DNA of 64,000 nucleotides from a virus, in UHGV virus genome UHGV-0036853; one strand, 5' to 3'. Shown here one piece after another: positions 1 through 64,000 of the stretch (its first letter is position 1; the number at the start of each line of letters is the position of its first letter). The position numbers and the translations under genes were made by a program. Below the pieces are notes generated by a model. That model saw nothing but the letters and a program-made list of their open reading frames with translations. It was not told the origin of the DNA and did no database searches.

Positions 1-5
1 AAAAT

Positions 6-23
6 GATAAGTAAGTACTTATA
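6..23. repeat. motif family 1 (ATAAGTAnnTACTTAT-type imperfect palindrome)
   Basis: gataagtaagtacttat; other copies near 3528, 10137, 14851, 17794, 21315, 24750, 28978, 33761, 40675, 42641, 44555, 46064, 51355 and in the cores of palindromes A and B. Confidence 0.6.
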
Positions 24-66
24 TATTTTCAAGAGATAAAAAAGGCGTCCTGTGGACGCCTTGTGT

Positions 67-1140
67 TTACTCTTCTACTGACTCGGTGGGATTGTCTTTT
101 GATCTCCGGTCGTCGATTGCCTGTAAAGCCGCAATGATTTCAGCTAGTGGCTTCTCCCGATACATCTCGACGATCTGTGATTTGGTGTATTTCTTGTCAC
201 CAATTTCTACGCGCCCGCTGGCGTTCTTTGGCAGGTATCCTTCATCCAGCATGTACTCGACGAGCGATTCGATAACGTCGAGGCCACGAGTAGGATCGAA
301 GTAGAATTTCCAGGTGCACTTGCCATACGGTGGTGCAACTTTGTTTTTGATGCACTCTGCGCCTACGTCCTGACCGATCTTCTCTTTACCATCCTTCATC
401 ACCGATGCACCGAGACGGATGCGCACAGAAGCGTAAAACTTCGGTGAATCGCCGCCTGGTGACGTCGTAGGGTCGCCAAACATTACACCGATTTTTGTGC
501 GAACCTGATTCAAGAAGATGATGCAGGCGTTATATTTGCGTGCCCACAAAGCCAGAGTGGGGAAGTTCGCGCTCGTCGCACGAGCAAGCGCCGTATTGTC
601 GTTCATGTTTAGCTGATCTTTGTCTTTGGCAGTGCCTTCAGCCATCTTTTCGAACTTCTCGGCTTTGGAGTTCGGAACCATAGACGCAAGTGAGTCAGCC
701 ACGATACAGATAGGTGCTGATTCAGGAATAAGCTCTTCATCACGTACCAATTTAAGTATTGTGCCGATCAACTCTACAGAGTCTTCGAAGGTATCTGGCT
801 GCTTGTATACCCACTGACCGTCATCCTCATCTGCATTCAAGCCATTGGCTACCGCCAGGCCAACGTCAAAACTGTTCTCATGATCGAGGAATACCGCCAG
901 ACCATCTTGTTTCTGAGCGGAGATCATTGCTGCTGTTGCCAAAAAGGTTTTCCCCGCGCTTGGCGGGCCGAATACTTCTACGATACGACCACATGGGAAA
1001 CCGCCATCGTAACGACCGGAAATAGCTTTGTTTAACGGAGGAAAGCCTGTGTCAATCCAATGAGTTACTTTCTGAATTTCGTCGTTGCTACCGATTTTCT
1101 TTTTCAGAGCAAGTGCCAGTGCGGATTTTCCTTTTGCCAT
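67..1140 (-). CDS. RecA-family recombinase
   Basis: Walker A GPPSAGKT; FLNQVRTKIGVMFGDP and GGDSPKFYASVRIRLG align with the RecA core. Confidence 0.85.
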   Translation of the reverse strand: MAKGKSALALALKKKIGSNDEIQKVTHWIDTGFPPLNKAISGRYDGGFPCGRIVEVFGPPSAGKTFLATAAMISAQKQDGLAVFLDHENSFDVGLAVANGLNADEDDGQWVYKQPDTFEDSVELIGTILKLVRDEELIPESAPICIVADSLASMVPNSKAEKFEKMAEGTAKDKDQLNMNDNTALARATSANFPTLALWARKYNACIIFLNQVRTKIGVMFGDPTTSPGGDSPKFYASVRIRLGASVMKDGKEKIGQDVGAECIKNKVAPPYGKCTWKFYFDPTRGLDVIESLVEYMLDEGYLPKNASGRVEIGDKKYTKSQIVEMYREKPLAEIIAALQAIDDRRSKDNPTESVEE

Positions 1141-1142
1141 GA

Positions 1143-1415
1143 TCAGGCTCCTTTTGTTTTGTTGATTCGTTTTAAAGCGGCGGATTCGTCGAATACAATC
1201 GCATCGTGGTTAAGGAGTCTGGATACACGAGCGAGGATTTTTACGACCTGCTCGCTGACTAATCCAAACTCGCGATCTGTCGCTTTAATTCCGGCAGCGC
1301 CTAGAATTGACGGCAGTGCGATGACAGCGTACTCACCGTGATAAAAGACAATCTCTTTTGCCAGTTGGGTAGGGGTGGTTGTAGCGCCATTAATAATCGA
1401 TTTAAGCATTAGCAA
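1143..1415 (-). CDS. hypothetical protein
   Basis: ORF translationally coupled to flanking genes. Confidence 0.35.
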   Translation of the reverse strand: MLMLKSIINGATTTPTQLAKEIVFYHGEYAVIALPSILGAAGIKATDREFGLVSEQVVKILARVSRLLNHDAIVFDESAALKRINKTKGA

Positions 1416-2353
1416 TACCTTTCGAATGGAAGAACAAACACTTCAAGGTCTTCAAGGAACGAACGGAAATTCAGCTCGTAGCACAGTTGCTCGAATGCTT
1501 TCACGTCACGATTGCCTTTGATTGTTTCGATTTCGGTAGGCGGAAACTTCGTCTCAATCAGGTTCATTAGCGTGATGTTTCTCTTGAACGCTTCGAGCAT
1601 TCGACAGCCTGTTTTCTCGTTGAAGGCATTCTTCGCTAGTTTGTTGAAGGCGGTCTTATGACGCCCTTTATTAACCACGATTGAGCCGTCGTTGATGCCG
1701 CGTACCATCGTTGCGACACTTCCCCATTCATGCAGCAGCTCTTTCGCGCCGCCAGCACCAATGCCACCAACACCGCTAATGTTGTCCGAGTTATCGCCTT
1801 GTAATGCTTTTGCTTCCAAAAATGCGCGAGGCGTGGCGAATCCTGTCAGCTCCGCAAATTGCTCAAAATTAACCTGCTTGTTTTTGGCGTCTTCACGCAG
1901 GCTTACCCAGCTTACGTTTTCGCGAACTAACTGAAGCCAGTCGCTATCGCCTGTTAACAGATAGATGTGTTCAACGGTTGGCTGCGGTGCCATGCGGGAT
2001 ACCAGCAGCCCGGCCAGATCATCCGCTTCTGCATCTTTTGCAATGATTTGGTTAACACCAAGCGCGGTCATCATTTTGAGGATGTATGGCTTCTGGACAG
2101 CAAAGCCTTCCTTCATCTTTTTCATATCAGGATCGTCGTCGCGATTTGCTTTGTAGTCCGGGTAAAAGTCGCGACGCTTGTCACTAAATCCATCCCAAAG
2201 AATCATAGGTCGGGCATGGAGGATGGAGGCATAACGACGGACGTTCTTAACAAAGCCGAAAGCAGCCTGTACTTCCATTTCGCCGTTGTGCAATTTGTCA
2301 GATTGTTGGTGGTAATAACCCAGGCTATTGCCATCTACGAAGAGATAATTCAC
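1409..2353 (-). CDS. 5'-3' exonuclease / flap endonuclease (PIN plus H3TH)
   Basis: FVDGNSLGYY N-terminus, LLTGDSDWLQL and GVGGIGAGGAKELL motifs; start moved from track GTG 2404 to in-frame GTG 2353 behind GGAAGGA because a terminator hairpin lies at 2374-2397. Confidence 0.75.
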   Translation of the reverse strand: MNYLFVDGNSLGYYHQQSDKLHNGEMEVQAAFGFVKNVRRYASILHARPMILWDGFSDKRRDFYPDYKANRDDDPDMKKMKEGFAVQKPYILKMMTALGVNQIIAKDAEADDLAGLLVSRMAPQPTVEHIYLLTGDSDWLQLVRENVSWVSLREDAKNKQVNFEQFAELTGFATPRAFLEAKALQGDNSDNISGVGGIGAGGAKELLHEWGSVATMVRGINDGSIVVNKGRHKTAFNKLAKNAFNEKTGCRMLEAFKRNITLMNLIETKFPPTEIETIKGNRDVKAFEQLCYELNFRSFLEDLEVFVLPFERYC

Positions 2354-2413
2354 CGGTACATTCCTTCCAAAAAGTAAGGCGTCCGTAGACGCCTTACTGG
2401 TCACGTAATGGGA

Positions 2414-3436
2414 TTACAGAGAGTCCAGCTCTCTCAGTAGGTCATCCAGACCTTCGTCTTCCGTCGCAGATGCGGCTGCTACAGATGTCGTTGCGTCTGC
2501 TTCAGACTCTTTGGCTGATGCGGCAGCAGAACTTGTTTCTGATTTAAATTCAGATTCCATTGCTCGCAGAACTTCTTCATCAACCAGACTGGTTGGTTCA
2601 GAAGCTGGAGTGTGGGCGGTTGCTACAGCCGTCGCTCCTTCCGTATGACCAGTGATCGAGCCAAATCCAGGCAGTGCAGAGGCCGATGTTTTCGCTGTTG
2701 AGGAAATTGCTGGTGCCGATGCAGTGGCAGTTGGTGCAGCGATGCCAATCAGACGACCCATAGTGCGAACTGTCGCAAGAAGGCGAGTTTCATCGGCCTG
2801 ATTCACATAAGCAATCAGGTCATGTTGGTTGTTCCAGAATTTATCTTCGATATCACCTTTGAAGACTTTACGTTTTGGTGAAACGTCATATTCTGTATCG
2901 CGACCAGAGCCTGTGCGCTTAATTTGAAATGCGTAACCTTCCTCTTTGCTTAATGGATTGCCGATATCGTCAGCGATGTCTTCGGTGATTGCTTTGCAGA
3001 TATCATCGAACACAGTGGAAGGCAGTTCGATTAACTGACATTTCTCTGCATCGGAGAAATCCTCACGAGTTGAAAGAATGCCGTTTACCAGGTAGCGAGG
3101 GGTTGCACGCATTTGACCGATGCGCTCTTCCATTGCTTTGTTACCCTTGTGACGAGCGCGACCTTCCATCACCATTTCGCATAGCTGACAAGCGCGACCG
3201 TGAGTATGTTGCTCACAAATATAAGCATTGGTTGCTTCTTTACCTTCCTCGTTCTGATACTTAATGTAGTGCATACCAAAAGTCTGGAAGAACTTACCAT
3301 TCGGGTCGTCTTTATTAGGGAAGATGCGGATATAGTTGATGCCGTCTTTTAAGCGGGTCAAATCAGTGTTTTTGCCACGTTTGGCGGCAATGTCTTCACG
3401 AGTTTTGTTAAGCAAATCAAGTAATGTCTTAGACAT
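2414..3436 (-). CDS. gp32-like single-stranded DNA-binding protein
   Basis: YIRIFPNKDDPNGKFF N-terminal block, His-x17-Cys-x8-Cys-x2-Cys zinc pattern, acidic C-terminal tail. Confidence 0.55.
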   Translation of the reverse strand: MSKTLLDLLNKTREDIAAKRGKNTDLTRLKDGINYIRIFPNKDDPNGKFFQTFGMHYIKYQNEEGKEATNAYICEQHTHGRACQLCEMVMEGRARHKGNKAMEERIGQMRATPRYLVNGILSTREDFSDAEKCQLIELPSTVFDDICKAITEDIADDIGNPLSKEEGYAFQIKRTGSGRDTEYDVSPKRKVFKGDIEDKFWNNQHDLIAYVNQADETRLLATVRTMGRLIGIAAPTATASAPAISSTAKTSASALPGFGSITGHTEGATAVATAHTPASEPTSLVDEEVLRAMESEFKSETSSAAASAKESEADATTSVAAASATEDEGLDDLLRELDSL

Positions 3437-3553
3437 GTGTTTCTCCTTGTTGTGATTTGGCCGATGGCGCTATGCGCGTTGGGCTTTCGTTCATTCGTGG
3501 CTCTTTCGAGCTGTTAAATGATAGATCAGTACTTACTTATTATCTATCAAAAA

Positions 3554-3985
3554 TCAACGGGGAGTAATAAAGCGTTCAGAGCCTAATCGATCTAACTCAA
3601 CGATGGCCATCTTCGACGCCTGAACGATCATGTCTCGGCGATGCGAAAAGGCGGCGACAGCATGTTTGTATATGTCTGCGATGTGCCGTGCTTCATCCAA
3701 CTTCTGCCGTTTAGACAGATACTGTGGGTTTGTTTTAACCTTAGCGTCCAGTACAGACTCGTTGAACTTAATGCCGTTCATACTCAAGTTCTTACGCTCT
3801 GTGTCGTATAGCTTTGCTTCAACAGCTTCAAGGTTAAGTTTTGCCTCTGCGACACTTCTTTCTGCATGAGCGAGTTTTGAGCCATACTCCATTAAAAGGC
3901 GGGGTTGTCTACGCCAGACTTCCTCCAGATTGTCTCGGTCAAACTCGAGATCAGACATTATTTTCTCGTAAATATCGGTGATCAT
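3554..3985 (-). CDS. hypothetical protein
   Basis: ORF only. Confidence 0.4.
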   Translation of the reverse strand: MITDIYEKIMSDLEFDRDNLEEVWRRQPRLLMEYGSKLAHAERSVAEAKLNLEAVEAKLYDTERKNLSMNGIKFNESVLDAKVKTNPQYLSKRQKLDEARHIADIYKHAVAAFSHRRDMIVQASKMAIVELDRLGSERFITPR

Positions 3986-4361
3986 AGTGATATATCCATA
4001 CTTATTTTTACGTATTAATTATATCAAAGAAAGGAGTGTTATTTTGTTTAGGAGAGAGTTTTATTAGGGTGCAATAGGTCGAATGTTACATGGTTCAGTG
4101 AGTCGTAAACTTTTGCTTCATGGAGTGGTTTTCAACCTGACAATTTTTTTGTTAATATCAATGAGCTACTTGCATTTTGCTCCGATGATGCAACGTTAGT
4201 TATTGAGTACCGCAGGACATGTGGGAATTAACGCCTGTGGAGAGAACGGTCAGATAGGATCACTCATGGAAGCAGGAACTCTTGTTCGTTAGTACATAGA
4301 GAATGTCAATACTGAAATTGATTCGTAACTGCTCTTTTTCTATATAGTTGAGGATATTACG

Positions 4362-4694
4362 GTGAAAAAAGTATTAGGTGCTATTTTTGGTGGTTTGCTT
4401 CTTCTGCCAGTTGTAAGCAATGCAGCGGATGCACAAAAAGCCGTCGACAATAAAAAACCTGTTAACGCTTGGACCTGTGAAGATTTCTTGGCTGTGGACG
4501 AATCTTTCCAGCCTACAGTTGTAGGTTTTGCTGATGCTCTGAACAAGAAAGGCAAACCCGAAGATGCTGTTTTAGATATTCAGGGGGTTGCTACTGTAAC
4601 TCCTGCGGTCATTCAGGCTTGCACTCAGGATAAAAAAGCCAGCTTTAAAGATAAAGTTAAAGCCGAATGGGACAAAATTAAGAAAGATCTATAA
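4362..4694 (+). CDS. hdeA: acid-stress periplasmic chaperone HdeA homologue
   Basis: signal peptide MKKVLG..LLLLPVVSNAADA; near full-length match to the E. coli HdeA sequence as I recall it; GTG start. Confidence 0.85.
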   Translation: MKKVLGAIFGGLLLLPVVSNAADAQKAVDNKKPVNAWTCEDFLAVDESFQPTVVGFADALNKKGKPEDAVLDIQGVATVTPAVIQACTQDKKASFKDKVKAEWDKIKKDL

Positions 4695-4780
4695 TTCATA
4701 GAGTACGTTTTATCGTATTCTTATTGAATATTGAGCGAGTAAATCTCCTGTTAGGATGTTTTTCTTGAATGGGGTGTAAA

Positions 4781-5107
4781 ATGACAGTTTCATCTCTACG
4801 TAAGGCCATGATTTTTTTAGGTGCAGTAGCTGCTCTTTCGCTGGTGAATGCACAATCTGTGTTGGCTGCCGGTGGTTCAGCTAATGATATGACTTGTCAG
4901 GAATTTATTGACCTGAATCCAAAAGCGATGACGCCAGTTGCTTGGTGGATGCTCCATGAGAAAACAGTATATAAAGGCGGTGATACTGTAACTCTGACTG
5001 AAACGGATCAGACTCAGATTCCTGAAGTGGTTGAATACTGCAAGAAAAACCCACAAAAAAACTTGTATACCTTCAAAGATAAATTGGCAAATGTCCTGCC
5101 TAATTAA
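4781..5107 (+). CDS. hdeB: acid-stress periplasmic chaperone HdeB homologue
   Basis: SSLRKA.IF.GAVAALSLVNAQS..MTCQEFIDLNPKAMTPVAWWMLHE matches HdeB; start taken at internal ATG 4781. Confidence 0.85.
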   Translation: MTVSSLRKAMIFLGAVAALSLVNAQSVLAAGGSANDMTCQEFIDLNPKAMTPVAWWMLHEKTVYKGGDTVTLTETDQTQIPEVVEYCKKNPQKNLYTFKDKLANVLPN

Positions 5108-5113
5108 CTAATA

Positions 5114-5138
5114 AAACCCGCCAAATGGCGGGTTTTTT
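5114..5138. terminator. bidirectional intrinsic terminator
   Basis: hairpin cccgccaaatggcggg flanked by T-runs on both strands, between hdeB and the polymerase gene. Confidence 0.7.
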
Positions 5139-5139
5139 A

Positions 5140-8100
5140 CTATGTCTTAATAGTTTCTGCTACGTCGGCTAATATCGCTTCTAGTCGTTCTCCCTCTTCA
5201 GGTCTGAAGTAAAGAATGTTGGGGTTAAACCCGTAAAAGACAGTAACGTCAAGGTCTGGAAGATACTCCTTCCTGCCGACTAAATCGGATGGCTTGTTTT
5301 TGTTGTTAAACATTGCCGTTGCCCGGCTGCCACACGTCAGCACATAGGTCGGACGCACCAGATTGATCTCTTCACGCATAAAGTCGGTGAACTGGCCGAT
5401 CTCGTCTTTGGTGTAGTCCTTTTCTTTGTCTTTCACCTTTTTGCAAACGCCTGTGACATAGAGATCGCCCATGCGCAAATCCCCAGCCGTCAACAGCTTG
5501 GCCTTAAAATCGTCGTATCCGTTTTCCATAAAGTAACCGGTTCGAGCATCATTGCCGTTCGCATTGTCCAGAATGATCATGATTTTCGGCTTAATACCAA
5601 TGCTGGGGCGGATTAGTTCATCACCCAAGCCCATTTCAGCCGCCATCCGTGTCATGAGCACGTTAATCTCAGCCGAACGTTTGGGGTTCATCTCAAACGG
5701 ACGTGAGGCTTTAACTGCATCTATGACAAGGTTTCCCATCAATTCAGCCTGGTCGCGGAGGCGCTCTGGATCAGTTGCTGGCAGACTACCTGGCTCGATG
5801 GATGCAAACGCCCCTACTTTTTGCAGCGATTCGCGCACTCGACTATTACAGGCACGTTTCTCGACAGCTTCTTCGAATTGCGCAAGTGATTCGAATTTGC
5901 CGCCAACCTTTTCTCGCGCTCTCATGATGGCCAGGCAGCCATTCTCAGAACACCCTTTCACAGCAGAGAAGGGCGCATACAGCACCTGGCTACCATCTTC
6001 AAGCGTGCGGATCTCGATTCGGTTAGATGACACGTTAACGTCTGGTGGCAATACGCGAATACCATAGGTCAGCGCATCTTTAACCAGCCCCTGGTGTTTA
6101 TCTTCGCCAAGAATAGTGAGAGCAGCAGCGAAAAACTCTGCGGGATAATGAGTTTTCAACCACATAGATTGATAACTGATTAAGGAGTAAGCAACAGAGT
6201 GTGATTTGTTGAACTGGTAGGCACCATTCTTTTCGAATGCGGTCCAGATCTCCTTCGCTTTCATCTCTGATAGCCCTGGATGTGACGCTGTAACGCGTAC
6301 TGCGTTTATAGGTAGTTTTGCGCCGTACTCAAGTGCCTCTTCGACAGTTTTCAGAGTTCCGTCTTCGCATTTAAAATGTTCCGCACGGTGAATGCGCTGT
6401 GTAGTGCCATCTTCCAGCTCAACGTCTATCCAGCCAGCTTGAGCCTGAACGATGAACTTCTCGCCCATGCTCTTCATTTTTTCCATGTCTTTTTTGCCGA
6501 TCGCTTTACGAACGCCGTCAGCTTCAGCCATTGTGAAGCCAGCAAGCAATCGAGTCGCGTTCATCGTCTGTTCCTGATAGAGAATCACGCCATTTGTTTC
6601 TGCGGTAAGTTCATCAAGAACGGGGTGTAATGATTCCGGCGTCATAAAGCCTTTGGCGACAGAAACATAATCATCCAACATGCCTGACTGAATTGGTCCC
6701 GGCCGGAAGAGCGCAGTCGTAGCAACGACCGTTTTAAAGCTCATTGGCTCAATTCCACCACCTAAATCTTTAAGCAGCTTGCGCATTGGGCCTGATTCAA
6801 GCTGGAAAACACCTTGAGTGTACCCAGCAGCAAAACCATCCAGCACCTTGCGATCTTCAAGAGAAATGGCATCAAGATTGATATCTTCACCTCTGTTCTC
6901 TTTTATGTAGCGTTTTGCACTATCGAGCAAATCGAGAGTTGCTAGGCCAAGCACGTCCAGCTTAATTAGGCCCATAGCCTCGCAGTAACGCTTGTCAAAT
7001 GCGATACAACGCGCGTCACCACGTCGTTCAACCGGTGTACGTTCTGTCAGAGGAACACCTGCTACGATCATCCCTGCCGCATGTCTACCAAAGCCACGCA
7101 TAAGGCTTTGTAACTTGCAGGCTGCATTGAATGCATCAGGGTATTTTGTCGCGTATTTGTCGAGACTTGCCAGTTGTTCGCGCAGCTCCTCCAATGGAAG
7201 GCTATCATCCTCGACGTTCTTCAGTTCTTTTGATACCGCCATATCTGCGGACTCCACACCATAAATACGAGCGGTGTCACGTAGTGCAGAGGCCGCGCCC
7301 AGGTAGGTGAAGTTCGGAATGCCTGCAACGTAATCTTCGCCGTAGCGTTCATTCAGATACTCGATCACCTCATGGCGACGTGCCTGGCTGAAGTCCAAGT
7401 CCGCATCTGGCAAGTCGAGACGCTCAGGGTTGATGAAACGCTCAAACAGAAGACCGTGACGGATTGGGTCGACGTTGGTTATGCCTATGCACCACGCCAC
7501 CAGAGAACCGGCAGAGGAACCACGACCAGGCCCAACGGGAATGCCAGTTTCACGACTATGATTCATCAGATCGCGCACCATCAGGAAGTAACCACAGAAT
7601 CCCAGGCGAGTAAGCGTGTCCATTTCGTACTTTAGCCGCTCAACATAAACCCTGTTCTCAGAAGCTGGTGGTGTGTAGCCAAACTCTTTTGTGGTAAGAC
7701 GTTTACGCAGCCCTGCAACAGCCAGTTTCATCAGCGTTGCAGGTTCGTCGTCTGCCATCTTGGGCAGTGCTGGTGGCAATTCATGCCAGCGCCATGTACA
7801 GGCTTCGATAATGGCGTCCTGCGTTGTTGAGGCCATTGCAGCTGTTACCGGCACATCCATGCGAACGGAGAAGGCTTTAAGCGCCTCAAGGAGATGGCGG
7901 CGACCATTGACGGCGTTATCTCGCTGGTGGGGGATACGCAGACGATGCGGCTGGTCGATTTTGATGTTGTTCGTAACCATGTGCGCAATGTCTTTAATGT
8001 CTGCATCGTCGATCGATTCGTAATAAGCGGGATAAAACGCTACTGGCTCTATTTTCAGTGCGCTGGCGACTTTCATCGCCCGGAAGTTAATCTGGTCGTA

Positions 8101-8658
8101 GAATGGGGTAGGGTGCGGATAAACCACACTATAGAAGTTGTCTTTTCCACCCGCTGTAATCAGTGTGCTTATAATTTTTGCAAAATCGTTGCGTTGGAAC
8201 ACGCTACCGATGTCGGAAGTGAGCAGGATGATGTTGCCTTTGGCATATGTAGAAACCAACTGTTCGAGCGAGAGACGCGGTACAAAGTAGAACTGTTCTC
8301 GTGTGTTGGCCACCGTCATTAGTTCGCAGATGTCGCGATATCCTTGCTCATTTTTAATTAGAGCGGTAAACGAGTAGTTACGTCCTCGCTCTAATGATTC
8401 CATACATCCCTTAGACTCTTTAGCAAGTTTAGCCCGGTACTCGTATGTGGGATCATCAACGATATTTAGTTTCACACCACAAATAACCGCCATGTCGTCA
8501 CCAGCGGCACGTTGTAGTGGAATAACACTCGCAATATTCATGCTATCTGCTGAAATTACAGCGGTGTAGCCAGCTTCTCTGGCAATCTTCACCGCGTTTT
8601 CCGCTTTTAACGCCGACTCCCCAAGTGAGAAGTCAGTTCGAACCATCAGTGCCTTCAT
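5140..8658 (-). CDS. DNA polymerase III alpha-type (DnaE-like) replicative polymerase
   Basis: 1172 aa, N-terminal PHP-like region, polymerase-core conserved blocks. Confidence 0.85.
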   Translation of the reverse strand: MKALMVRTDFSLGESALKAENAVKIAREAGYTAVISADSMNIASVIPLQRAAGDDMAVICGVKLNIVDDPTYEYRAKLAKESKGCMESLERGRNYSFTALIKNEQGYRDICELMTVANTREQFYFVPRLSLEQLVSTYAKGNIILLTSDIGSVFQRNDFAKIISTLITAGGKDNFYSVVYPHPTPFYDQINFRAMKVASALKIEPVAFYPAYYESIDDADIKDIAHMVTNNIKIDQPHRLRIPHQRDNAVNGRRHLLEALKAFSVRMDVPVTAAMASTTQDAIIEACTWRWHELPPALPKMADDEPATLMKLAVAGLRKRLTTKEFGYTPPASENRVYVERLKYEMDTLTRLGFCGYFLMVRDLMNHSRETGIPVGPGRGSSAGSLVAWCIGITNVDPIRHGLLFERFINPERLDLPDADLDFSQARRHEVIEYLNERYGEDYVAGIPNFTYLGAASALRDTARIYGVESADMAVSKELKNVEDDSLPLEELREQLASLDKYATKYPDAFNAACKLQSLMRGFGRHAAGMIVAGVPLTERTPVERRGDARCIAFDKRYCEAMGLIKLDVLGLATLDLLDSAKRYIKENRGEDINLDAISLEDRKVLDGFAAGYTQGVFQLESGPMRKLLKDLGGGIEPMSFKTVVATTALFRPGPIQSGMLDDYVSVAKGFMTPESLHPVLDELTAETNGVILYQEQTMNATRLLAGFTMAEADGVRKAIGKKDMEKMKSMGEKFIVQAQAGWIDVELEDGTTQRIHRAEHFKCEDGTLKTVEEALEYGAKLPINAVRVTASHPGLSEMKAKEIWTAFEKNGAYQFNKSHSVAYSLISYQSMWLKTHYPAEFFAAALTILGEDKHQGLVKDALTYGIRVLPPDVNVSSNRIEIRTLEDGSQVLYAPFSAVKGCSENGCLAIMRAREKVGGKFESLAQFEEAVEKRACNSRVRESLQKVGAFASIEPGSLPATDPERLRDQAELMGNLVIDAVKASRPFEMNPKRSAEINVLMTRMAAEMGLGDELIRPSIGIKPKIMIILDNANGNDARTGYFMENGYDDFKAKLLTAGDLRMGDLYVTGVCKKVKDKEKDYTKDEIGQFTDFMREEINLVRPTYVLTCGSRATAMFNNKNKPSDLVGRKEYLPDLDVTVFYGFNPNILYFRPEEGERLEAILADVAETIKT

Positions 8659-8842
8659 GTGTTTTTACCTTTCTGGTTTTTTTGATTTTGTCATTGGGGA
8701 AGCCTACGAACTTCCCATGCATCGAAATCGCAACTTCTTTTGCTGATTGGTGACAATCGGGCTTGTCTGGACACACCAGACAAGCCTTACCAGTTTCAGA
8801 AGCAGCGATAAGAGAGCCGAAACATCCTTTACGCACGATCAA
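8633..8842 (-). CDS. small Cys-rich (zinc-ribbon-like) protein
   Basis: CLVCPDKPDCH; coupled between the AAA+ gene and the polymerase gene. Confidence 0.35.
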   Translation of the reverse strand: MIVRKGCFGSLIAASETGKACLVCPDKPDCHQSAKEVAISMHGKFVGFPNDKIKKTRKVKTHEGTDGSN

Positions 8843-10074
8843 CCAAATATTTTTTGAACAACTTCACGAGCCGCTTGTGCAGAAGCTGAAGGGAGTTTGT
8901 TAATGAAAGAACGCTCAATACCTGTCACGAAGTCGCCTCGCATCATTCCAATCTTGGCCGACAACAAAAGCTCACGAGGCCCAATCGGTTGGCTGATGTT
9001 GTGTTCTTCGTAACCATCGCGAACGATACCGGCAAACTTAACCATCTTTTCAGCGTATTCATCCACGATGCCGGCATTTATCAACATGTTGATCTCTGCC
9101 TCTTTGCTCATGTATTTCACATTTGAAACGATGCCAAAACGCGAAAAGTTCGCTGCGTTCTGGATGTTTGTCCCCTGGTACAAGCCAGTTTCATCACCAG
9201 AACCGTTTGTGTTGCCAGTGCCAATGAAAGCAAACCGTTCATGCGGAGTAATGCGACGCCATTCTGGTGTTGCCTCTTTGATGACCAACGCCTCACCTTC
9301 CAGCACAGGCTGATACACGCCAAGAATTTGTGGAAACGCAAAGTCGTATTCATCCGCGAGGTAAACCCAGCCATGCTTCATTGCGAGCGCAAGCAAGCCT
9401 GGCTCGAAATACGTAGAGCCATCACGCGCCAGAATTTGACCCGTAACATGAGCCTCTTCCATTGATGCTGTATGTTGGGCACGGATCAACGGACGATTGA
9501 GCAAAGCACATAGCTGTGTAGGCAATGACGATTTGCCTGTTCCTGCATGACCCCACAAATAGCCAGGTATGCCAAGTTCAAGCATCATGAAAATATCTTT
9601 GATCAGTTCGAAGTCGCCATATACGTAGCCTTTCTTCACTTCGGGAACGAACTCTGGAAACGGCGTATTGACGTTGACGCTAACCATGAGCGGCGTCCCA
9701 CGTTTTGTTCCGAGTTCTTCCACCGTTACGTCTAGCAGTTCGTGAGCTGCGACCAGATCTGTCTTGTACTCAACTGTGCCTATGTAGCCTGGGCTACTGG
9801 TCACGCCAGAAGATTTGGCCATTTCGCTTTTTTGCTCGGCACGTTTAGCTTGAATTGCATCCAGTGCCTTTTTCGATAGCGTTGGTTCATCTGGAAACTG
9901 CGTTGTGTACATTTTCAGTACGGTGTCAGGATCGGCATCTTTTACCGACTCAGGAATGCCTTCGCAATTACCATAGGCTACATGGGACTTAAAATAGTGA
10001 AATGATTTTCCGCACCACTTGCAAACAAGGTAATCAGAAGGATTTTTTTCATTTTGCAGTGCAGTAGTAGTCAT
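8839..10074 (-). CDS. MoxR/CobS-like AAA+ ATPase with N-terminal zinc finger
   Basis: Walker A GHAGTGKSSL, Walker B VYLADEYD, CKWCGKSFHYF N-terminus. Confidence 0.75.
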   Translation of the reverse strand: MTTTALQNEKNPSDYLVCKWCGKSFHYFKSHVAYGNCEGIPESVKDADPDTVLKMYTTQFPDEPTLSKKALDAIQAKRAEQKSEMAKSSGVTSSPGYIGTVEYKTDLVAAHELLDVTVEELGTKRGTPLMVSVNVNTPFPEFVPEVKKGYVYGDFELIKDIFMMLELGIPGYLWGHAGTGKSSLPTQLCALLNRPLIRAQHTASMEEAHVTGQILARDGSTYFEPGLLALAMKHGWVYLADEYDFAFPQILGVYQPVLEGEALVIKEATPEWRRITPHERFAFIGTGNTNGSGDETGLYQGTNIQNAANFSRFGIVSNVKYMSKEAEINMLINAGIVDEYAEKMVKFAGIVRDGYEEHNISQPIGPRELLLSAKIGMMRGDFVTGIERSFINKLPSASAQAAREVVQKIFG

Positions 10075-10169
10075 GCGTTTTTCCTTTGTTCTCTAATGAG
10101 CGTTCAACTTCTTATATAAATATATCATTAACTATCATAAGTAGTTACTTATCATTAAGGCTGTTTTAA

Positions 10170-14325: not shown

Positions 14326-14413
14326 ATGACAATCACCGAGTTACGCCGATTCACTGTATAAGTAAACAGTATATTAGGCATAGATTCTTATAGGATCAAG
14401 AGTAAAAGTAACT

Positions 14414-14446: not shown

Positions 14447-14509
14447 TGGAATCATTTAGACGTTGTTTTTTGAATTTTAAGGGAAACAGGAGTGAGTTTG
14501 GTGGGAATA

Positions 14510-53515: not shown

Positions 53516-54058
53516 ATGGGTGTACTTGACATTGATAGTAATTACTTAAGTGCAAGGCGAATAAAGGAATGTGTTCATATCTATTGTAAATCAAAGCAGT
53601 CTTGTTTAGAAAAGCAGGCGTACCTAACATCTTCTCAAAAAGGAGAGCACAAACTCATCAAATATAAACTAAAGGCTTCGCGCAAAGATCGTTATGAGCA
53701 CTATATATACGTAAAGGATATTGAAGGTACCAAGACAAATTGCGGTATTATCTTTTATCCCTATGATATATCAAGACTGTTCTCCATTATGAAATCCTGT
53801 GTCGGCGTAGCTCCAGGTAAATTAGAGTTGCATTCAAACTTATACGATTACCCAAATGCTCAAAAACTGATAAACGATAGCACTTCGTCCTATGGATTTT
53901 CGTTTCTCTTTAAGAATCATCTCGCATTGAAAGATTTCATCGAAAAATACAATGAAGGAATAATATCAGGCGAATTAAATTTCAACAAAATCTGCGGAGA
54001 TATAAAAAGGGACGACCTCTTAATAGATATTTACAACAGAACCCAAGTTAACGTGTAA
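53516..54058 (+). CDS. hypothetical protein (AT-rich island)
   Basis: ORF, low GC. Confidence 0.45.
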   Translation: MGVLDIDSNYLSARRIKECVHIYCKSKQSCLEKQAYLTSSQKGEHKLIKYKLKASRKDRYEHYIYVKDIEGTKTNCGIIFYPYDISRLFSIMKSCVGVAPGKLELHSNLYDYPNAQKLINDSTSSYGFSFLFKNHLALKDFIEKYNEGIISGELNFNKICGDIKRDDLLIDIYNRTQVNV

Positions 54059-54085
54059 CCATCCATTAATCATAGCCAGACAAAT

Positions 54086-54505
54086 ATGAAAGTAACAAAC
54101 CTAATTATTTTAACACTAGCCACATCACTAATTGGGTGTTCATCTTCATCTATATCTGTTTCAAAGGCAAAGTATGCACCTCAAAGCAGAATATTTAAAT
54201 ATCAAACACCACATGAGTCTAGTCTAACAATAGTTAGAGACAAAGGGCTGGTTGGTTCTGGATGTAACGCTTCCATATTCATCAATGGAGAAACGGCAGC
54301 AAAATTGGAACCTGGTGAAAAAGCAACTTTCTATCTTAATGAAGGAGATTGGATCGTTGGGACATCAATTGAAAGTTCAGGTCTTTGCGCATTTAACCCC
54401 TCTAGGATGGAGCGAGAAATAAAACTAAAGCAAGGCGACGCGAAAACATATCGGGTTTTCACTACCTGGGATGGTACAATGGATATATTGCCAACCACTT
54501 TATAA
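54086..54505 (+). CDS. lipoprotein (AT-rich island)
   Basis: lipobox LIGC. Confidence 0.5.
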   Translation: MKVTNLIILTLATSLIGCSSSSISVSKAKYAPQSRIFKYQTPHESSLTIVRDKGLVGSGCNASIFINGETAAKLEPGEKATFYLNEGDWIVGTSIESSGLCAFNPSRMEREIKLKQGDAKTYRVFTTWDGTMDILPTTL

Positions 54506-54509
54506 TGAT

Positions 54510-55034
54510 ATGACGACGAAAGACATCACCTACGGTGTGCCAGCAGAAGTCTGGCCTCGAGATTACACTAACGTTGAAAAACTACTGATGTTCTGGCGCA
54601 GAGAACAAATTCCTGTAAGGGCCACTCTCGAAGATGGTCAGGCGTTTTGCATGTACGTTTATGGCCTCATGCCATCTCGTAACAAAGTTGACCTTTGCCC
54701 AGCCCCTTTTGACAAAGAAAATCGTATAAGGCTCCCAATTGAACGCATTAGTACAATTGAATCAGGTGTGGTTGACAGTATCGCTCACGATTTCAAAGGT
54801 CGACTAACAGTTCACCCTGATTATGTCGATAATCGGCCATCACGCCGCGATTTTTTTGCAATTTGCAACCAAGCCTACAAAGCAAACAAATCTATAAGGG
54901 TGTACATGGCGGATGGCCGTGAAATTGAGGGGGTGTCAGCAGGCGCAGATGCTTGTCAGGTTACACTACGTGTCGAGAACGGTAGAAAAATAGTTGTTTT
55001 GTTCGATTGGGTTGAACGAATTTTGCCTTTTTGA
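54510..55034 (+). CDS. hypothetical protein (AT-rich island)
   Basis: ORF; start moved to ATG after upstream stop. Confidence 0.45.
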   Translation: MTTKDITYGVPAEVWPRDYTNVEKLLMFWRREQIPVRATLEDGQAFCMYVYGLMPSRNKVDLCPAPFDKENRIRLPIERISTIESGVVDSIAHDFKGRLTVHPDYVDNRPSRRDFFAICNQAYKANKSIRVYMADGREIEGVSAGADACQVTLRVENGRKIVVLFDWVERILPF

Positions 55035-55037
55035 GTT

Positions 55038-55346
55038 ATGAAATCGATATTGTTACCACCATTATTTTTACTTTGCTCAGTTGCGGCAAATGCAATGGAC
55101 TATAAGCCTGTCATTCAGTCGCTGATGAATGACGTGTGCTCAACGTCTCAGAATGTATCAGTTTGCATGTATCAATTTTCGGCAGCCGTAAAAGCAGGAA
55201 AAGCGATAGGTGAGAATGTGGAACTGTGTAAGAAAGTGGCAAATGAAGAACGAGCAATGTTGGATTGCGAATCTAGCGAGTCATCGGCACAGTTCGTTGA
55301 TGCGCTATTTGACACCAATCGTAAGGCTGTAGAGTCTGTCCAATAA
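55038..55346 (+). CDS. small secreted Cys-containing protein
   Basis: signal peptide ending ANA. Confidence 0.5.
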   Translation: MKSILLPPLFLLCSVAANAMDYKPVIQSLMNDVCSTSQNVSVCMYQFSAAVKAGKAIGENVELCKKVANEERAMLDCESSESSAQFVDALFDTNRKAVESVQ

Positions 55347-55536
55347 ATCTATAAGGTTAATAACCGGCTAAGTCCGGTTATTATTTTTCACATCACTTCT
55401 TTATATCTATAAATCAAATAATCTAAATATATATAAGGTCGAAAGCCGTAATCGATTATTTATTTAGGGAACACCTTCGACGATCTCGCTTTTATTTCTA
55501 GGACTTTCATCCCTGCAAAAAATTTTAAAAAAACAC

Positions 55537-55564
55537 TTGCAATCTTTTTTCGCGTATCGATAAT
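55537..55564 (+). promoter_or_regulatory. sigma70-like promoter for 55630 gene
   Basis: TTGCAA, 16-bp spacer, GATAAT; strong RBS AAGGA before ATG. Confidence 0.5.
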
Positions 55565-55629
55565 TGAACTCGTCGAAAGCGAAGACGCTAACGACAATAA
55601 ATTTTAAATTTACATAAGGAAAAATTATC

Positions 55630-56280
55630 ATGGCTAACATTATCATTTCTAAAAAATCCATCATTGAAGCTGCTTCCATTGTATCCGATGAACTGCGCGA
55701 AAAAGCAGATCTGGCAACTCAAACATATAACGAACATTATAAAAATGGTACGCACACTAAAGCAGACAAAGCAAATATGCAAGCTGCGACCACTAAACTT
55801 GCTTACTTCATCAACAACGTCGTAAACGCAGTAGAAGACGAAAAATTATGCTCTGTTTTCTACTATGCGATTAAAGCAAGCAAACAAGCGCCAGAAGTAT
55901 TTTTCCGTGATGCAATGACTAATAGTTATTCACTGGAAAAACTGGTTTATCTGGTTAAATCCATTAAAGCTGGTAAATGCGTTTATTCCGTCGCTGATAT
56001 GTCAGGATCTCGTGTATTCGCTTTAATCGATATGATTAACGACGAGATCGACACGTTCACTAATGGCGCTGTTTTCGATTTAATGAATGAAGCTAAAAAA
56101 GCGTGCGAAATTAAATTGGACGCTGGCTATACTCAAGCCAACCAGTTGATCAATCTTTGCGAACGTCTCGGACTTGTTGAGAAAGTCAAAGGAGCTGGGA
56201 GCGCAAAAGCTGGTACTCAGCAATATCGCTTCATTAAAAATGATTTCTACAATTATTTAGCTGATGCTTTCAAAGCGTAA
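55630..56280 (+). CDS. hypothetical protein with own strong promoter
   Basis: 216-aa ORF. Confidence 0.55.
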   Translation: MANIIISKKSIIEAASIVSDELREKADLATQTYNEHYKNGTHTKADKANMQAATTKLAYFINNVVNAVEDEKLCSVFYYAIKASKQAPEVFFRDAMTNSYSLEKLVYLVKSIKAGKCVYSVADMSGSRVFALIDMINDEIDTFTNGAVFDLMNEAKKACEIKLDAGYTQANQLINLCERLGLVEKVKGAGSAKAGTQQYRFIKNDFYNYLADAFKA

Positions 56281-59718: not shown

Positions 59719-60030
59719 TCAGGCTATTGCCATCACTGATGCTCTCTGAATTTCTTGCTGGGCCACGCGGTTAACTTCCATCAAAGCCAGTTCGAGCTGA
59801 TGTTCCGGCCACATTCTTTGAAATGCCACCCAGCCTTTTCCACGCTGGCGACGAACATTCATTACATAACGAGTAAAGGTGTTTTTATCGAAAGACACCG
59901 CTGTTTCACGGAACAGACGAATAGAGGTTCCATTGGCAACGATGTCCAGCAAAGTTAATTGAGCAACCAGCGCAGGCTTCTCTTTTCTCTTCTGGTCTTT
60001 GTCCAGACCAAGAACCAATGATTTTTTCAT
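59719..60030 (-). CDS. small basic hypothetical protein
   Basis: start at ATG 60030 behind GGAG. Confidence 0.45.
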   Translation of the reverse strand: MKKSLVLGLDKDQKRKEKPALVAQLTLLDIVANGTSIRLFRETAVSFDKNTFTRYVMNVRRQRGKGWVAFQRMWPEHQLELALMEVNRVAQQEIQRASVMAIA

Positions 60031-60040
60031 CACAACTCCG

Positions 60041-60080
60041 TAAACAACTTGTTTTCTCAATGGCGTAAATAATACCAGTG
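60041..60080 (-). promoter_or_regulatory. motif family 2 copy
   Basis: taaacaacttgttttctcaatggcgtaaataata. Confidence 0.5.
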
Positions 60081-60184
60081 AGAAAACGGCTACAAAGCAT
60101 ATTGATCAGGTACATGAGCGATATGCAGGTTCTTCCCTGCGGCTACAGATGAAGTTAAGCCAGCATTGCTGGCTTTGGTTGGGT

Positions 60185-60514
60185 TTACTCGAATACTTCA
60201 AGAAACTCCTGAACATCCCAATGCTGGACAAGGTGAAGATAGACCTTAGAAATCACGTCATTCTCGCTATCGCATGTGAAGTAGTACTTCTGGCTGCGGT
60301 TGTATGTGTCCACACAAAATTCGCTCATATCCATAAAGTCAGCATCTTCACCCATGTCGCAAATCATCAAAGCAGGTGCATCATCACGAGTCATCAGCTC
60401 AAGCACCCACCGCGAATTGATCAGAGTGGAAGACCAACCTTCTAACTCATAAAACTGATCAAACTCTTTTTGAGTCAATTTCTTGATTTGGTTGATGTCG
60501 ATATGTGCAAACAT
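60185..60514 (-). CDS. small acidic protein
   Basis: start at ATG 60514 behind AAGGA; D/E-rich. Confidence 0.45.
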   Translation of the reverse strand: MFAHIDINQIKKLTQKEFDQFYELEGWSSTLINSRWVLELMTRDDAPALMICDMGEDADFMDMSEFCVDTYNRSQKYYFTCDSENDVISKVYLHLVQHWDVQEFLEVFE

Positions 60515-60526
60515 AAAGCAATCCTT

Positions 60527-60580
60527 AAACAACATGTTTTCTTATTGGTGTTATTATCGCAATAACACACAGGCGAAAAA
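60527..60580 (-). promoter_or_regulatory. motif family 2 copy
   Basis: aaacaacatgttttcttattggtgttattatcg. Confidence 0.5.
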
Positions 60581-60699
60581 GGATTTTATTCCGGTGAATG
60601 TGGTTTTGGCAGTGAGTTTTCAGGTTCAGTACCGAGTACAATTTTTACATTATTCTGATTTAGTGGCCGAAGATGGCTGGTGGGCAGAATAATCCTCTC

Positions 60700-62000
60700 C
60701 CCGAAAACCTACTGAAATCGATTGTGACCCGCTGGCTGTCTGGCACAATTACGCTGTAGCTGGGCATTCAGAGGGAATCCAGCGGTAAGTAAGTCCGCCT
60801 GCACGTGAGCGTCTCTCTCCTTCCCGCACATTACAGGTGGGCAGCCGCAACTCTCCCTCACGCTATACCGGTACGCCACCGTTCCTGAACCGGCATCGAA
60901 CCTTTTCCCGAAATCCACACAGGCAACTCGACCGTTTCCCTGAAAACCTCCAGCCGTTCCCCGAAGGCAACCCAGCCGTTTCTGTAGCGGGATGCAGCCT
61001 TTTCCCTGTATGGACCGAAGGCTGACCGTAGGGGTGTTACGGGGGATAAAATCAGGAGTTGAATAAATACGAAAAAGGAGGCGACACCCCTCCTTCCCTC
61101 CCCACTTATACATACCTGGCTTCTTCGCTATACATGTTGTGTTTTATTCGTGTTTTATCTGTCTCAACCTCTCTATAGGCGTTAATGCTCACTCCTTCCA
61201 GAGCGTTCTATACGGCGACTATTCCTGTTGGTGAATTGGGTGTGTTGTTCTCTCTGTCGGTGTAAATGGTTTCGTTCGTTTTGCGGTGGTTCTTCTGTGG
61301 GGGTGTTCTCGTCGTTTTGGTGATTGTTCTTCTCCGTGTATGGAGTAATGGCAGGTGGGCGATTCCTTTCGTTATTGTGTTTGAGTTGTTTGTCTGGAGT
61401 GCGTGAAGGGCTTTTGTAGTTATTCGTGTATTGGGTAATGGCGTTTCCCGTGATTGTTATGTTTCGTGTCTTTTGGGATTGAGAGAATCCTTGCGGTTAC
61501 AGGCTTCGTTGGGTTTTCAGTGATTCTGGTGTTCTTCGCTGTTTGGGGAATGGCGTGTCGTGGGTATCGCGCGTGTGAATGTTTTCGGATTGCCTGTGAA
61601 AGTTAGGTTGGTTGTCCGGTAGCCTGGGAAGAAGAGGTGGGTCTTTTCGGTGGCCTGCCATAAAGAGGTTGGTTGTTTTTGGGAATGGCATGTGTGTTAT
61701 TTAGTTGTTTTGTTATGCCTGAAAATAAGTTGTTTATATGGTTGTGTAACGCAACGGGAGCGATTTTGAGCGTGTGTTTTTGTTGGTAGTGTGTTGAGTT
61801 GTCTGTGGTGAAAATTGGACGCTGTGGAGCTGTCTGCTGCGTAGGATTACGGGTATAAGAAGTGATGTGTGAAAACGTCAATTTTTTAGACCAAATCGGG
61901 TGAAAGCGTTGACGTTTCGTTGATCTGTTATTCAGTTGTTTTCTTGTTTGTATAAACAACTATAACCTATTGATATTTAAGGATGTGATTGCAGGCATGG
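60700..62000. other. ~1.3-kb gene-poor, strongly G+T-skewed (plus strand) region with spaced short repeats
   Basis: TTCCCnGAAA-like repeats at 60.70-61.0 kb; four spaced GGGnAATGGC-like repeats at about 61336, 61427, 61540 and 61681. Confidence 0.5.
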
Positions 62001-62087
62001 AAGGGGAGTAGTGGCGATCAACGGATTCTTATAGAAAAGAATCAAATTGTGACCGCCATTATCAACGGTTTGAATATGTTTTCAGAT

Positions 62088-62396
62088 TTACCAGTTCCAG
62101 CACTCTAGCCCTTCAACGACTGGTGCACCACAATCAAAATGTACAGAGTCAAAGCCTACATCAAGTACCTTCTGAATGTTAGCAATCGCGCCTTCGGATA
62201 TACCATATCGACGCAAGTTGTCTTTCCAGACATCATCCTGTAACCCGGCGTGGACAATACAACCGCCGTCAATTTGCGAAACCCAATCCAGCTCATTGCT
62301 TGCGATCATGAACCGGCGAGCATCTTCCTCTGATGTATGAGATGAACTGATCAATGCCACCTGGTAGGCTTGGGTAATGTTCAACATTTCAACCAC
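62088..62396 (-). CDS. hypothetical protein (last gene before chromosome junction)
   Basis: ORF with two upstream motif copies. Confidence 0.45.
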   Translation of the reverse strand: MVEMLNITQAYQVALISSSHTSEEDARRFMIASNELDWVSQIDGGCIVHAGLQDDVWKDNLRRYGISEGAIANIQKVLDVGFDSVHFDCGAPVVEGLECWNW

Positions 62397-62400
62397 TCCG

Positions 62401-62470
62401 AAACAATTTGTTTTCTTATATGGCTTATTATCTCAATTAACAAAAGTCAGAAAACAAATTGTTTTAGGCA
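62401..62470 (-). promoter_or_regulatory. two motif family 2 copies
   Basis: aaacaatttgttttcttatatggcttattatc and agaaaacaaattgtttta. Confidence 0.5.
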
Positions 62471-62547
62471 TATGTAAATCAGAAGGGATTGCGTCTATAT
62501 GAAAATGCCCAGCGTGTTGCCGGGCATTGCGAACAGAGGTTGTTTAG

Positions 62548-64000
62548 TTACTTAACCTGGTGGCCTGGTTTAGCGCCAGCATCCGGGCTTAACAGGAAGA
62601 TATCTTTCCCGCCAGGGCCAGCAGCCATCACCATGCCTTCGGAGATACCGAAGCGCATTTTACGCGGAGCCAGGTTAGCCACCATAATGGTGTGACGACC
62701 AATCAGTGCCTGTGGGTCTGGATAAGCAGAACGGATGCCTGAGAAGACATTGCGTTTTTCACCACCGAGATCCAGTGTCAGACGCAACAGTTTGTCAGAA
62801 CCTTCAACAAACTCCGCGTTTTCAATCAGCGCCACACGCAGGTCAACTTTGGCGAAGTCGTCAAAGGTGATGGTTTCCTGAATCGGGTCGTCAGCCAGTG
62901 GGCCAGTTACCGGTGCGGCTGTGGCTTTCACTTCTTCTTTGGATGCTTCCACCAGTGCTTCCACCTGTTTCATATCGATACGGTTATACAGTGCTTTGAA
63001 CGGATTCACTTTATGGCTCAACAGCGGTTGCTGAATACCATCCCAGGTCAGTTCTGTATTCAGGAATGCTTCTGCACGTTCAGTCAGTTTCGGCAGTACC
63101 GGTTTCAGGTAAGTCATCAGCACGCGGAACAGGTTAATGCCCATAGAGCAAATCGCCTGCAGATCTGCATCGCGACCTTCCTGCTTCGCCACCACCCACG
63201 GAGCCTGTTCATCGACATAGCGGTTAGCCAGGTCAGCCAATGCCATGATTTCACGGATAGCTTTACCAAATTCGCGGCTTTCCCATGCTTCGCCAATCAC
63301 TTCAGCGGCATCAGTAAAGGTTTTGTACAGTTGCGGGTCAGCCAGTTCGCTTGCCAGCACGCCGTCAAAACGCTTGTTGATAAAGCCCGCATTACGGGAG
63401 GCCAGGTTAACCACTTTGTTCACGATATCGGCATTCACACGCTGAACGAAATCCTCCAGGTTGAGATCGATATCATCAATGCGCGAAGACAGTTTGGCGG
63501 TGTAGTAGTAACGCAGGCTGTCAGCGTCAAAATGATTCAGCCAGGTGCTGGCTTTAATAAAGGTGCCGCGAGACTTGGACATCTTCGCGCCGTTCACCGT
63601 CACATAGCCGTGAACAAACAGGTTGGTCGGCTTGCGGAAGTTGCTGCCTTCCAGCATGGCAGGCCAGAACAGGCTGTGGAAGTAAACAATATCTTTACCG
63701 ATGAAGTGGTACAGCTCGGCGGTGGAGTCTTTCTTCCAGTATTCATCGAAGCTGGTGGTATCGCCGCGCTTGTCGCACAGATTCTTGAAGGAACCCATGT
63801 AGCCAATCGGTGCGTCCAGCCAGACGTAGAAATATTTACCCGGCGCGTTCGGAATTTCAAAACCGAAGTACGGCGCATCGCGGGAGATATCCCACTGTTG
63901 CAGGCCAGATTCAAACCACTCCTGCATTTTATTTGCCACTTGCTCCTGCAACGCGCCGCTGCGGGTCCATGCCTGCAACATTTCGCTGAAAGAAGGCAGA
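62548..64000 (-). CDS. metG: methionine--tRNA ligase, C-terminal two-thirds (partial, continues past window end)
   Basis: KMSKS motif, anticodon-binding and C-terminal tRNA-binding regions read as E. coli MetRS. Confidence 0.9.

Follow-up and report, generated by a model that had tools for sequence, protein, structure and literature searches.

The SSU5 supergroup of phage-plasmids is composed of the SSU5_pHCM2, pKpn, pSLy3, and pMT1 groups, which are mostly of the IncFIB type (PMC7969092). One member, Cyrano, is plasmid pLF82 of Escherichia coli LF82, an SSU5-like phage-plasmid with a copy number of 5.5 per cell that forms virions and can be induced with ciprofloxacin (PMC9928086). Another, pWPMR2 of Shigella sonnei, is described as carrying metG, the gene for methionyl-tRNA synthetase (MetRS), in papers that also report pWPMR2-like elements in E. 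coli of CC131, CC23, and CC73, and that attribute to Tam et al. 2024 the finding that expression of the extra metG gives a subpopulation surviving antimicrobials (PMC12452169; bioRxiv 10.1101/2025.09.12.675607). Here we compare with these elements the virus genome UHGV-0036853, of which the whole 64,000-nucleotide stretch (positions 1-64000, hereafter the window) was analyzed. We are confident that it is an internal segment, about 60% in extent, of an Escherichia SSU5-supergroup phage-plasmid of the pLF82/Cyrano, pECOH89, and pWPMR2 type, that both window ends fall within this element, and that the metG sequence at the right-hand end is cargo. Both the element class and its metG cargo are already described, and the finding is an ordinary one.

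Over its full length, metG as well, the window aligns collinearly at 96-98% with more than 200 circular E. coli and Escherichia albertii plasmids of ~105-115 kb, and its right-hand 25 kb is 100% collinear with plasmids of these two species of ~109 kb. The nucleotide search against phage and plasmid records that the original prediction had proposed as a check returned collinear phage-plasmids at 95-98% identity; with megablast, both halves of the window matched Escherichia phages CMS-2020a, Cyrano, and PhiR41_1 (circular, 108 kb, and deposited as a phage) at 95-97% identity, and SSU5 and its Klebsiella relatives at ~80%. The replication and structural blocks are collinear with those of SSU5 at ~80-81% nucleotide identity, compared with 95-98% for the E. 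coli members. By host and size, the group within the supergroup is likely pSLy3; an IncFIB rep gene is reported for the supergroup and would fall outside the span of the window.

A portal/terminase probe matched 248 places, all of them on plasmids, in 240 of 5426 complete E. coli genomes, and found the phage backbone on no chromosome of that set. About 95% of the relatives are stand-alone plasmids of 100-120 kb, with a few on plasmids of 190-440 kb, and 771 of the 814 matching plasmids in PLSDB are typed as non-mobilizable. The extrachromosomal state is thus seen in the relatives (248 of 248 places), and we extend it from them to the window's own replicon. The original prediction had allowed, as an alternative, that the gene content might be that of a phage-plasmid, and this alternative is borne out by the plasmid-borne backbone and its collinearity with Cyrano and PhiR41_1. 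We predict that the element is a siphovirus prophage maintained without integration as a circular, low-copy, non-conjugative plasmid of ~105-115 kb, which would replicate and recombine using its own DnaE, DnaB, primase, ligase, RecA, and single-stranded DNA-binding protein (SSB), and would segregate using ParA/ParB-type proteins. About 4% of complete E. coli genomes carry this element class, and about 90% of those copies have a second metG.

The principal claim of the original prediction was that a temperate element abuts the 3′ end of a chromosomal metG, with the edge of the element at 62.47-62.55 kb. The coding frame had been read correctly: a minus-strand MetRS frame stops at 62548-62550 and is open to base 64000, giving a 3′ part of metG of 1453 nucleotides and 484 codons (62548-64000). 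The chromosomal interpretation does not hold. At least 80% of a 4 kb probe (60000-64000) is covered at ~96-97% identity in 212 E. coli plasmids, which have the same junction between metG and the gene for a DUF5983 small protein and in which the element continues beyond; the probe's 5424 chromosomal matches all cover only the metG part, at 90-95% identity. PhiR41_1 and the RefSeq plasmid NZ_JBWDPP010000001.1 (circular, 114.8 kb) have a full-length metG of 2034 nucleotides (677 amino acids), with the DUF5983 gene on one side and, on the other, a divergent apbC/mrp followed by HumD, DNA polymerase III theta, and many other phage-plasmid genes.

Comparison with an uninterrupted metG region gives the same picture. 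By BLAST, homology between the metG-apbC segment of a relative and E. coli K-12 is bounded exactly by the stop codons of metG and apbC (3298 bp, 88.7% identity), and only 62548-64000 of the window is homologous to the K-12 metG region (93.5%). The 3′ flank of the window metG is a non-coding spacer (62397-62547, minus strand) with a hairpin and T-run unrelated in sequence to the K-12 metG terminator. It is followed by the DUF5983 gene (62088-62396, minus strand; Pfam PF19419), the first in a run of small element genes at 57.4-62.4 kb. The spacer is not an att junction: we found no junction of element and chromosome, no pair of occupied and empty sites, and no integrase beside a split attL/attR. 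The tyrosine recombinase had seemed "buried" 48 kb away because there is no att junction at 62.5 kb.

The spacer also carries two copies of a 13-bp palindrome, AAACAANTTGTTT, which occurs 13 times in the window (12298, 23974, 26004, 48009, 48034, 57904, 58389, 59139, 60042, 60527, 61723, 62401, and 62452) against 0.65 expected. The copies mostly sit shortly before the starts of minus-strand genes and cluster most densely at 57.9-62.5 kb, where they precede most of the small genes; the palindrome looks like an operator for an element-encoded regulator. The last two copies are between the DUF5983 gene and the metG stop, at least one of them within 100 bp of the stop codon. In a relative, AAACAANTTGTTT also occurs beyond metG-apbC, and the metG cargo therefore lies inside the element.

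The MetRS part encoded in the window is 93.5% identical to K-12 in nucleotide sequence and 98.6% in amino acid sequence, and full-length plasmid MetRS proteins of relatives are 98.8% identical to K-12 MetRS, with eight conservative substitutions. At every diagnostic position that it covers, the window metG has the plasmid-type residue (S275T, V276T, S319T, V442I, R538K, and A554T); it is nearer to plasmid alleles throughout its covered length, and no switch from plasmid-type to chromosome-type single-nucleotide polymorphisms was found along it to base 64000. By tblastn, a MetRS of 99% identity or more is encoded on 192 plasmids. Because the ratio of nonsynonymous to synonymous substitution rates (dN/dS) of plasmid metG against K-12 is 0.02, and the N-terminus with the HIGH region and the KMSKS motif are intact, the cargo metG looks functional and under selection. 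Plasmid ApbC is 94% identical to its K-12 counterpart in protein and 82% in DNA. We suggest that a 3.3 kb host segment, with metG and the divergent apbC trimmed to both stop codons, would have been captured long ago into an accessory region, and that strong purifying selection would have kept metG intact as an additional MetRS gene. Published work ties such a second metG to antimicrobial survival in epidemic Shigella.

We note that plasmid metG alleles differ from one another at synonymous sites (dS 0.15-0.30) about as much as they do from K-12 (dS 0.24-0.32), and that they contain alternating 100-nucleotide blocks with 98-99% or 90-92% identity to K-12, while the linked apbC is much more diverged, at 82% nucleotide identity. 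From this mosaic we suspect patchy conversion of metG between plasmid and chromosome.

The presence of a tyrosine recombinase at 13-14 kb, as stated in the original prediction, is confirmed by a match to Pfam PF00589, and the gene (13222-14325, minus strand) codes for a 367-residue protein. Its catalytic domain is of the P4/lambda Int type (also PHROG 1, integrase), with a Phage_int_M central domain and an RVYDRHDY tyrosine motif. Across 24 homologues of 43-87% identity there is no variation at the candidate catalytic residues R184/R185, K211, R284, and Y316, and H307 shows at least 90% conservation; the catalytic roles are assigned by motif. An AlphaFold2 model has a predicted local distance difference test score of 82 overall and of 64-86 in residues 1-40, and the best Foldseek matches are lambda Int(75-356), Tn1549 Int, and Xer proteins; a sequence search of the Protein Data Bank gave no matches. 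No arm-binding domain was detected, either by Pfam or in the model, whose N-terminus is helical without an arm-binding beta-sheet; PF13356 (DUF4102/arm-binding) is found only in homologues of 34% identity or less.

Reading toward the recombinase start, the upstream region contains the grxA terminator, an inverted repeat, a promoter-like sequence, and a LexA box. The repeat, AATGATTCCATAC-ATAGTAG-GTATGGAATCATT (14424-14456), is 100 bp upstream of the recombinase gene and has perfect 13-bp inverted arms about an asymmetric 7-bp spacer, as would suit a candidate recombination core site. Seven elements drawn from five genera have invariant arms, flanks of ~67% identity, and differing 7-bp spacers; in 190 of 198 loci from IMG/VR and other fetched sources the site is single with its repeat intact, and there are at least 10 spacer variants. 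We found no description of this 13-7-13 site in the literature searched. A single-protein scan of genome contigs and an alignment scan of viral contigs brought up close relatives alone. Distant relatives, with 44-60% recombinase identity, keep the order of cargo, recombinase, convergent small helix-turn-helix (HTH) gene, 70-residue open reading frame (ORF), CobT, and CobS.

The arms change together. In Xenorhabdus and Providencia members both are altered symmetrically at two positions (TGATTCCATAC to TGACTCCAGAC), and this change is seen across a clade of Xenorhabdus, Providencia, Rahnella, Pantoea, and Erwinia. Arm symmetry is kept in 98% of cells, with two internal positions changing on both sides in five sequences, and none of 500 shuffles reached the observed covariation score. 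The site is also found beyond phages: stand-alone recombinase homologues of 46-48% identity, located on replicons of Rahnella (723 kb) and Pantoea vagans (508 kb) and on an Erwinia contig (437 kb), have the same 13-7-13 site 25-170 bp upstream and neither phage genes nor a convergent HTH gene nearby. Because stand-alone recombinases keep the site without a repressor gene, we assign it to the recombinase rather than the repressor. A reading of the repeat as an operator of the HTH repressor is disfavored, since the repeat persists beside repressor-less recombinases and the 13-copy palindrome fits an operator better.

Apart from the complete site, we observed isolated exact half-arms, ATGATTCCATAC, at 8394-8405, 17241-17252, and 18253-18264, with five copies in all against 0.3 expected. 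One lies within dnaE, another close to tRNA-Asn, and a third makes up the start (MIPYI) of a 50-residue ORF; their positions are kept in Klebsiella relatives, and two of them in SSU5.

The LexA (SOS) box, CTG-N10-CAG (14352-14371), comes directly after TTGATC-17 nt-TAATAT, a near-consensus sigma-70 promoter-like sequence of the recombinase gene, and is the sole match in the window. It is kept in Escherichia, Klebsiella, Kluyvera, Buttiauxella, and Citrobacter elements, and was not found by a strict CTG-N10-CAG search in those of Nissabacter, Xenorhabdus, and Providencia. At the other end of the recombinase gene, its 3′ end overlaps by 6 nucleotides a convergent gene (12841-13227, plus strand) for a 128-residue HTH protein, a homologue of Cyrano CYRAN_45, a putative lysogeny repressor expressed ~10-fold above background in a lysogen (PMC9928086). 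The 128-residue protein gave no Pfam match, so that a LexA/CI-type cleavage domain was not detected. The two genes remain convergent, overlapping or abutting, at recombinase identities as low as 44%. The whole repressor-recombinase module is missing from the lytic isolate SSU5, whose CobT gene is followed directly by tRNA-Asn.

The original prediction had mentioned that the recombinase might be a dimer-resolution enzyme, and this suggestion is supported by comparison, through the single, co-varying, adjacent site that is kept on non-phage replicons. The sequence and fold of the enzyme are integrase-like. Taken together, recombinase and site fit a self-contained plasmid multimer-resolution cassette better than they fit integration. 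The recombinase most likely acts on the single lox-like site near its own gene, which would resolve multimers, and it possibly circularizes incoming DNA.

The strongest competitor, which we nonetheless consider improbable, is that the recombinase is a true integrase with an alternative integrated state in some hosts, the 13-7-13 repeat serving as attP or as a repressor operator. The protein's closest relatives in sequence and fold are integrases, its gene is paired with that of a lysogeny repressor (both being absent from the lytic SSU5), and an SOS-controlled promoter is what would be expected of an excision function. However, neither the backbone nor a copy of the site is chromosomal in E. 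coli: a 51-bp site probe matched 252 E. coli genomes, always on plasmids, and found no chromosomal attB or site copy in the 5426 genomes at E up to 10, a search that a degenerate attB with another spacer would escape. The phage-type relatives examined are all on contigs of ~90-110 kb with a whole repeat instead of separate attL and attR halves, recombinases lacking a repressor gene nearby still have the site, no arm-binding domain is seen, and for the operator variant the multi-copy palindrome is the better candidate. We also considered an integron-like arrangement, with a LexA-controlled integrase, an adjacent site, and variable cargo upstream, and dropped it, there being no match to the integron-integrase family.

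Starting from a multimer-resolution cassette, we speculate, while regarding it as doubtful, that the repressor-recombinase module is an SOS switch. With LexA cleaved, transcription from the strong promoter would cross the recombinase gene and enter, in antisense orientation, the overlapping convergent gene of a non-cleavable HTH repressor; antisense transcription would lower the repressor and lead to phage-plasmid induction; and the induced recombinase would resolve multimers formed by SOS recombination. If this is true, the recombinase and its 13-7-13 site would be an undescribed cassette common to SSU5-type phage-plasmids and Pantoea, Erwinia, and Rahnella megaplasmids.

Much less probable is that the phage-plasmid copy lies within a larger replicon, either by chromosomal recombination through the 3.3 kb metG-apbC segment or as a plasmid cointegrate. 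The 3.3 kb of chromosome-like DNA (89-94% identity) and the element's own RecA would permit it, a few relatives are on the 190-440 kb plasmids, the metG alleles are mosaic-looking, and the sequence past metG is outside the window; against this stand the absence of any chromosomal place in the 5426 genomes, the plasmid-type metG with no chromosomal-type switch up to base 64000, and the prevalence of stand-alone plasmids among the relatives. Least of all do we credit a prophage integrated site-specifically immediately 3′ of the chromosomal metG of its host, so that 62.47-62.55 kb would be its attR or attL; this is close to impossible. Although phage-type DNA adjoins a MetRS gene with 93.5% DNA identity to chromosomal metG and the window encodes a tyrosine recombinase, 212 plasmids and no chromosome share the identical junction, the backbone is never chromosomal, metG is plasmid-type along its length, the relatives have apbC and more element genes after it, chromosomal homology stops at the stop codon with a different terminator beyond, and the element's own motif is within 100 bp of that stop codon.

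Several points count against our interpretation of the window as a phage-plasmid segment with a functional metG and a resolution cassette. The window contains no replication initiator and ends inside metG, so that its replicon type is taken from relatives, and no identical record was found, the best overall matches being ~97-98%. The resolution role of the recombinase is argued by comparison, its nearest kin in sequence and fold are true integrases (P4-like, lambda Int, and Tn1549 Int), and the five arm-covarying sequences probably represent one evolutionary event. The functional claim for metG is second-hand, coming from papers that cite the Tam et al. 2024 preprint (medRxiv 10.1101/2024.10.27.24316207), reportedly the source of the pWPMR2 metG work. 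Finally, a deletion at 41.8 kb, described below, could be an assembly artifact.

This deletion was missed by the original prediction. Compared with NZ_JBWDPP010000001.1, the window lacks 8,089 bp, with the junction at ~41822-41826; what is absent comprises ~3.8 kb of the tape-measure gene, chaperone-like ORFs, an Ig-like tail-tube gene, five head/tail completion genes, and the end of an Ig-like decoration gene. A 500-bp probe over the junction matched 233 E. coli plasmids, in every one with its halves apart (query 1-254 and 250-500), and the junction was intact in none of the 233, making the deletion private to the window copy; pRM13322, 99% identical in the portal region, has no deletion at this locus. 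Because 8.1 kb of tail genes are lost, this copy should be unable to build tails and should survive only as a plasmid, unless the assembly is at fault. It is predicted to be a defective member that does not form virions, although its close relative Cyrano does.

The remaining gene content was assigned from an ORF map, a tRNA scan, and Pfam scans, which agree with the replication and partition genes listed in the original prediction. The two blocks, the ParA and ParB_N genes, and the structural module described next are all on the minus strand. A recombination and replication block (67-12278) contains RecA (67-1140), a 5′-3′ exonuclease (1409-2404), a gp32-like SSB (2414-3436), DnaE (5140-8658), a CobS-like AAA+ protein, and a CobT-like VWA protein. 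A second block (18636-23954) contains an ATP-dependent ligase (18636-19958), a primase (21351-22604), and a DnaB-like helicase (22614-23954). A ParA-type partition ATPase (25300-25968) matches Pfam MipZ/CbiA, and scores 115.7 bits with NCBIfam ParA_partition, below the cut-off of 180; two proteins with ParB_N domains (49990-51356; Pfam) adjoin an ABC-type ATPase (49328-49993). The siphovirus structural module (30190-47336), with annotation transferred from NZ_JBWDPP010000001.1, codes for a tail fiber, TipJ, I/K/L tail-tip proteins, a tape-measure remnant, capsid, portal, and large terminase. In the 1175-residue tail-fiber gene, 14-mer repeats at 30725, 30965, and 31367 reflect internal sequence repeats (30725-31374).

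A cluster of tRNA-Ser, tRNA-Thr, tRNA-Tyr, and tRNA-Asn genes (16045-17046, minus strand; tRNA scan) lies in a region (16022-17050) that matches, at ~94-95% identity, the tRNA regions of phage vB_EcoM-Ro157c2YLVW and of P1/P7/D6-type phage-plasmids. Such likeness points to exchange between unrelated phage-plasmid families. Between grxA and tRNA-Ser there is a cargo segment of low G+C content (~36%; 14784-16778) which is not in the compared relative; its 302-residue ORF (14957-15865) has no Pfam, NCBIfam, or PADLOC match and only one to PHROG 35492, of unknown function. Two ORFs at 26076-27498 (PHROGs 3307 and 2594, of unknown function) sit where the relative has a TacA/TacT-type toxin-antitoxin pair, and this difference is a cargo swap beside the ParA gene. 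A defense-system reading of the cargo ORFs at 14957-15865, 26131-27306, and 53516-56280 was rejected, as PADLOC found nothing in them and the PHROGs to which they belong all have unknown function. Another over-represented motif, GATAAGTAAGTAC, is found at 6, 3528, 17794, 24760, 40680, and 44557, and a variant of it, GATAGGTAAGTA, at 20449, 28986, and 46073; several of the copies checked fall at gene boundaries.

For scans of this kind, the window carries a caution: a housekeeping gene beside phage DNA does not mark a junction between chromosome and prophage when the gene itself is cargo. What is possibly new here is small, namely a likely recombinase site shared with megaplasmids, SOS control of a recombinase gene convergent with a repressor gene, and a tail-less derivative.

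Among known recombination systems, the window recombinase resembles the P4/lambda-type integrases in its catalytic and core-binding domains, RVYDRHDY motif, and Phage_int_M domain, and differs from them in having no DUF4102/arm-binding domain and no attL/attR or chromosomal state that we could see. The arrangement recalls P1 Cre/loxP and other plasmid multimer-resolution cassettes such as F ResD/rfsF, in that a tyrosine recombinase gene has one adjacent candidate core site with two 13-bp inverted arms and an asymmetric spacer, here on a plasmid prophage and also on large plasmids. However, the window recombinase has no detectable sequence relation to Cre (Foldseek E-values of 0.1-0.4, versus 3e-7 for lambda Int), the spacer is 7 bp rather than the 8 bp of loxP, and the recombinase promoter is predicted to be LexA-controlled, with the gene convergent with a repressor gene.

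Among whole elements, Salmonella phage SSU5 and pHCM2 share ~80% nucleotide identity with the window over the replication and structural modules, in the same order, but SSU5 has no match to the metG-apbC region, no repressor-recombinase module, and no 13-7-13 site. The Shigella sonnei element pWPMR2 is closer in cargo, as an SSU5-supergroup phage-plasmid reported to carry metG. Closest of all are Cyrano (pLF82), PhiR41_1, CMS-2020a, and pECOH89. The window copy differs from the Cyrano group in lacking the 8.1 kb of tail genes and in having other cargo at 14.8-16.8, 26.1-27.5, and 53.3-55.3 kb; otherwise these elements share with it 95-97% nucleotide identity and the same gene order, and the likeness covers the repressor-recombinase pair, the tRNA cluster, the structural module, and metG.

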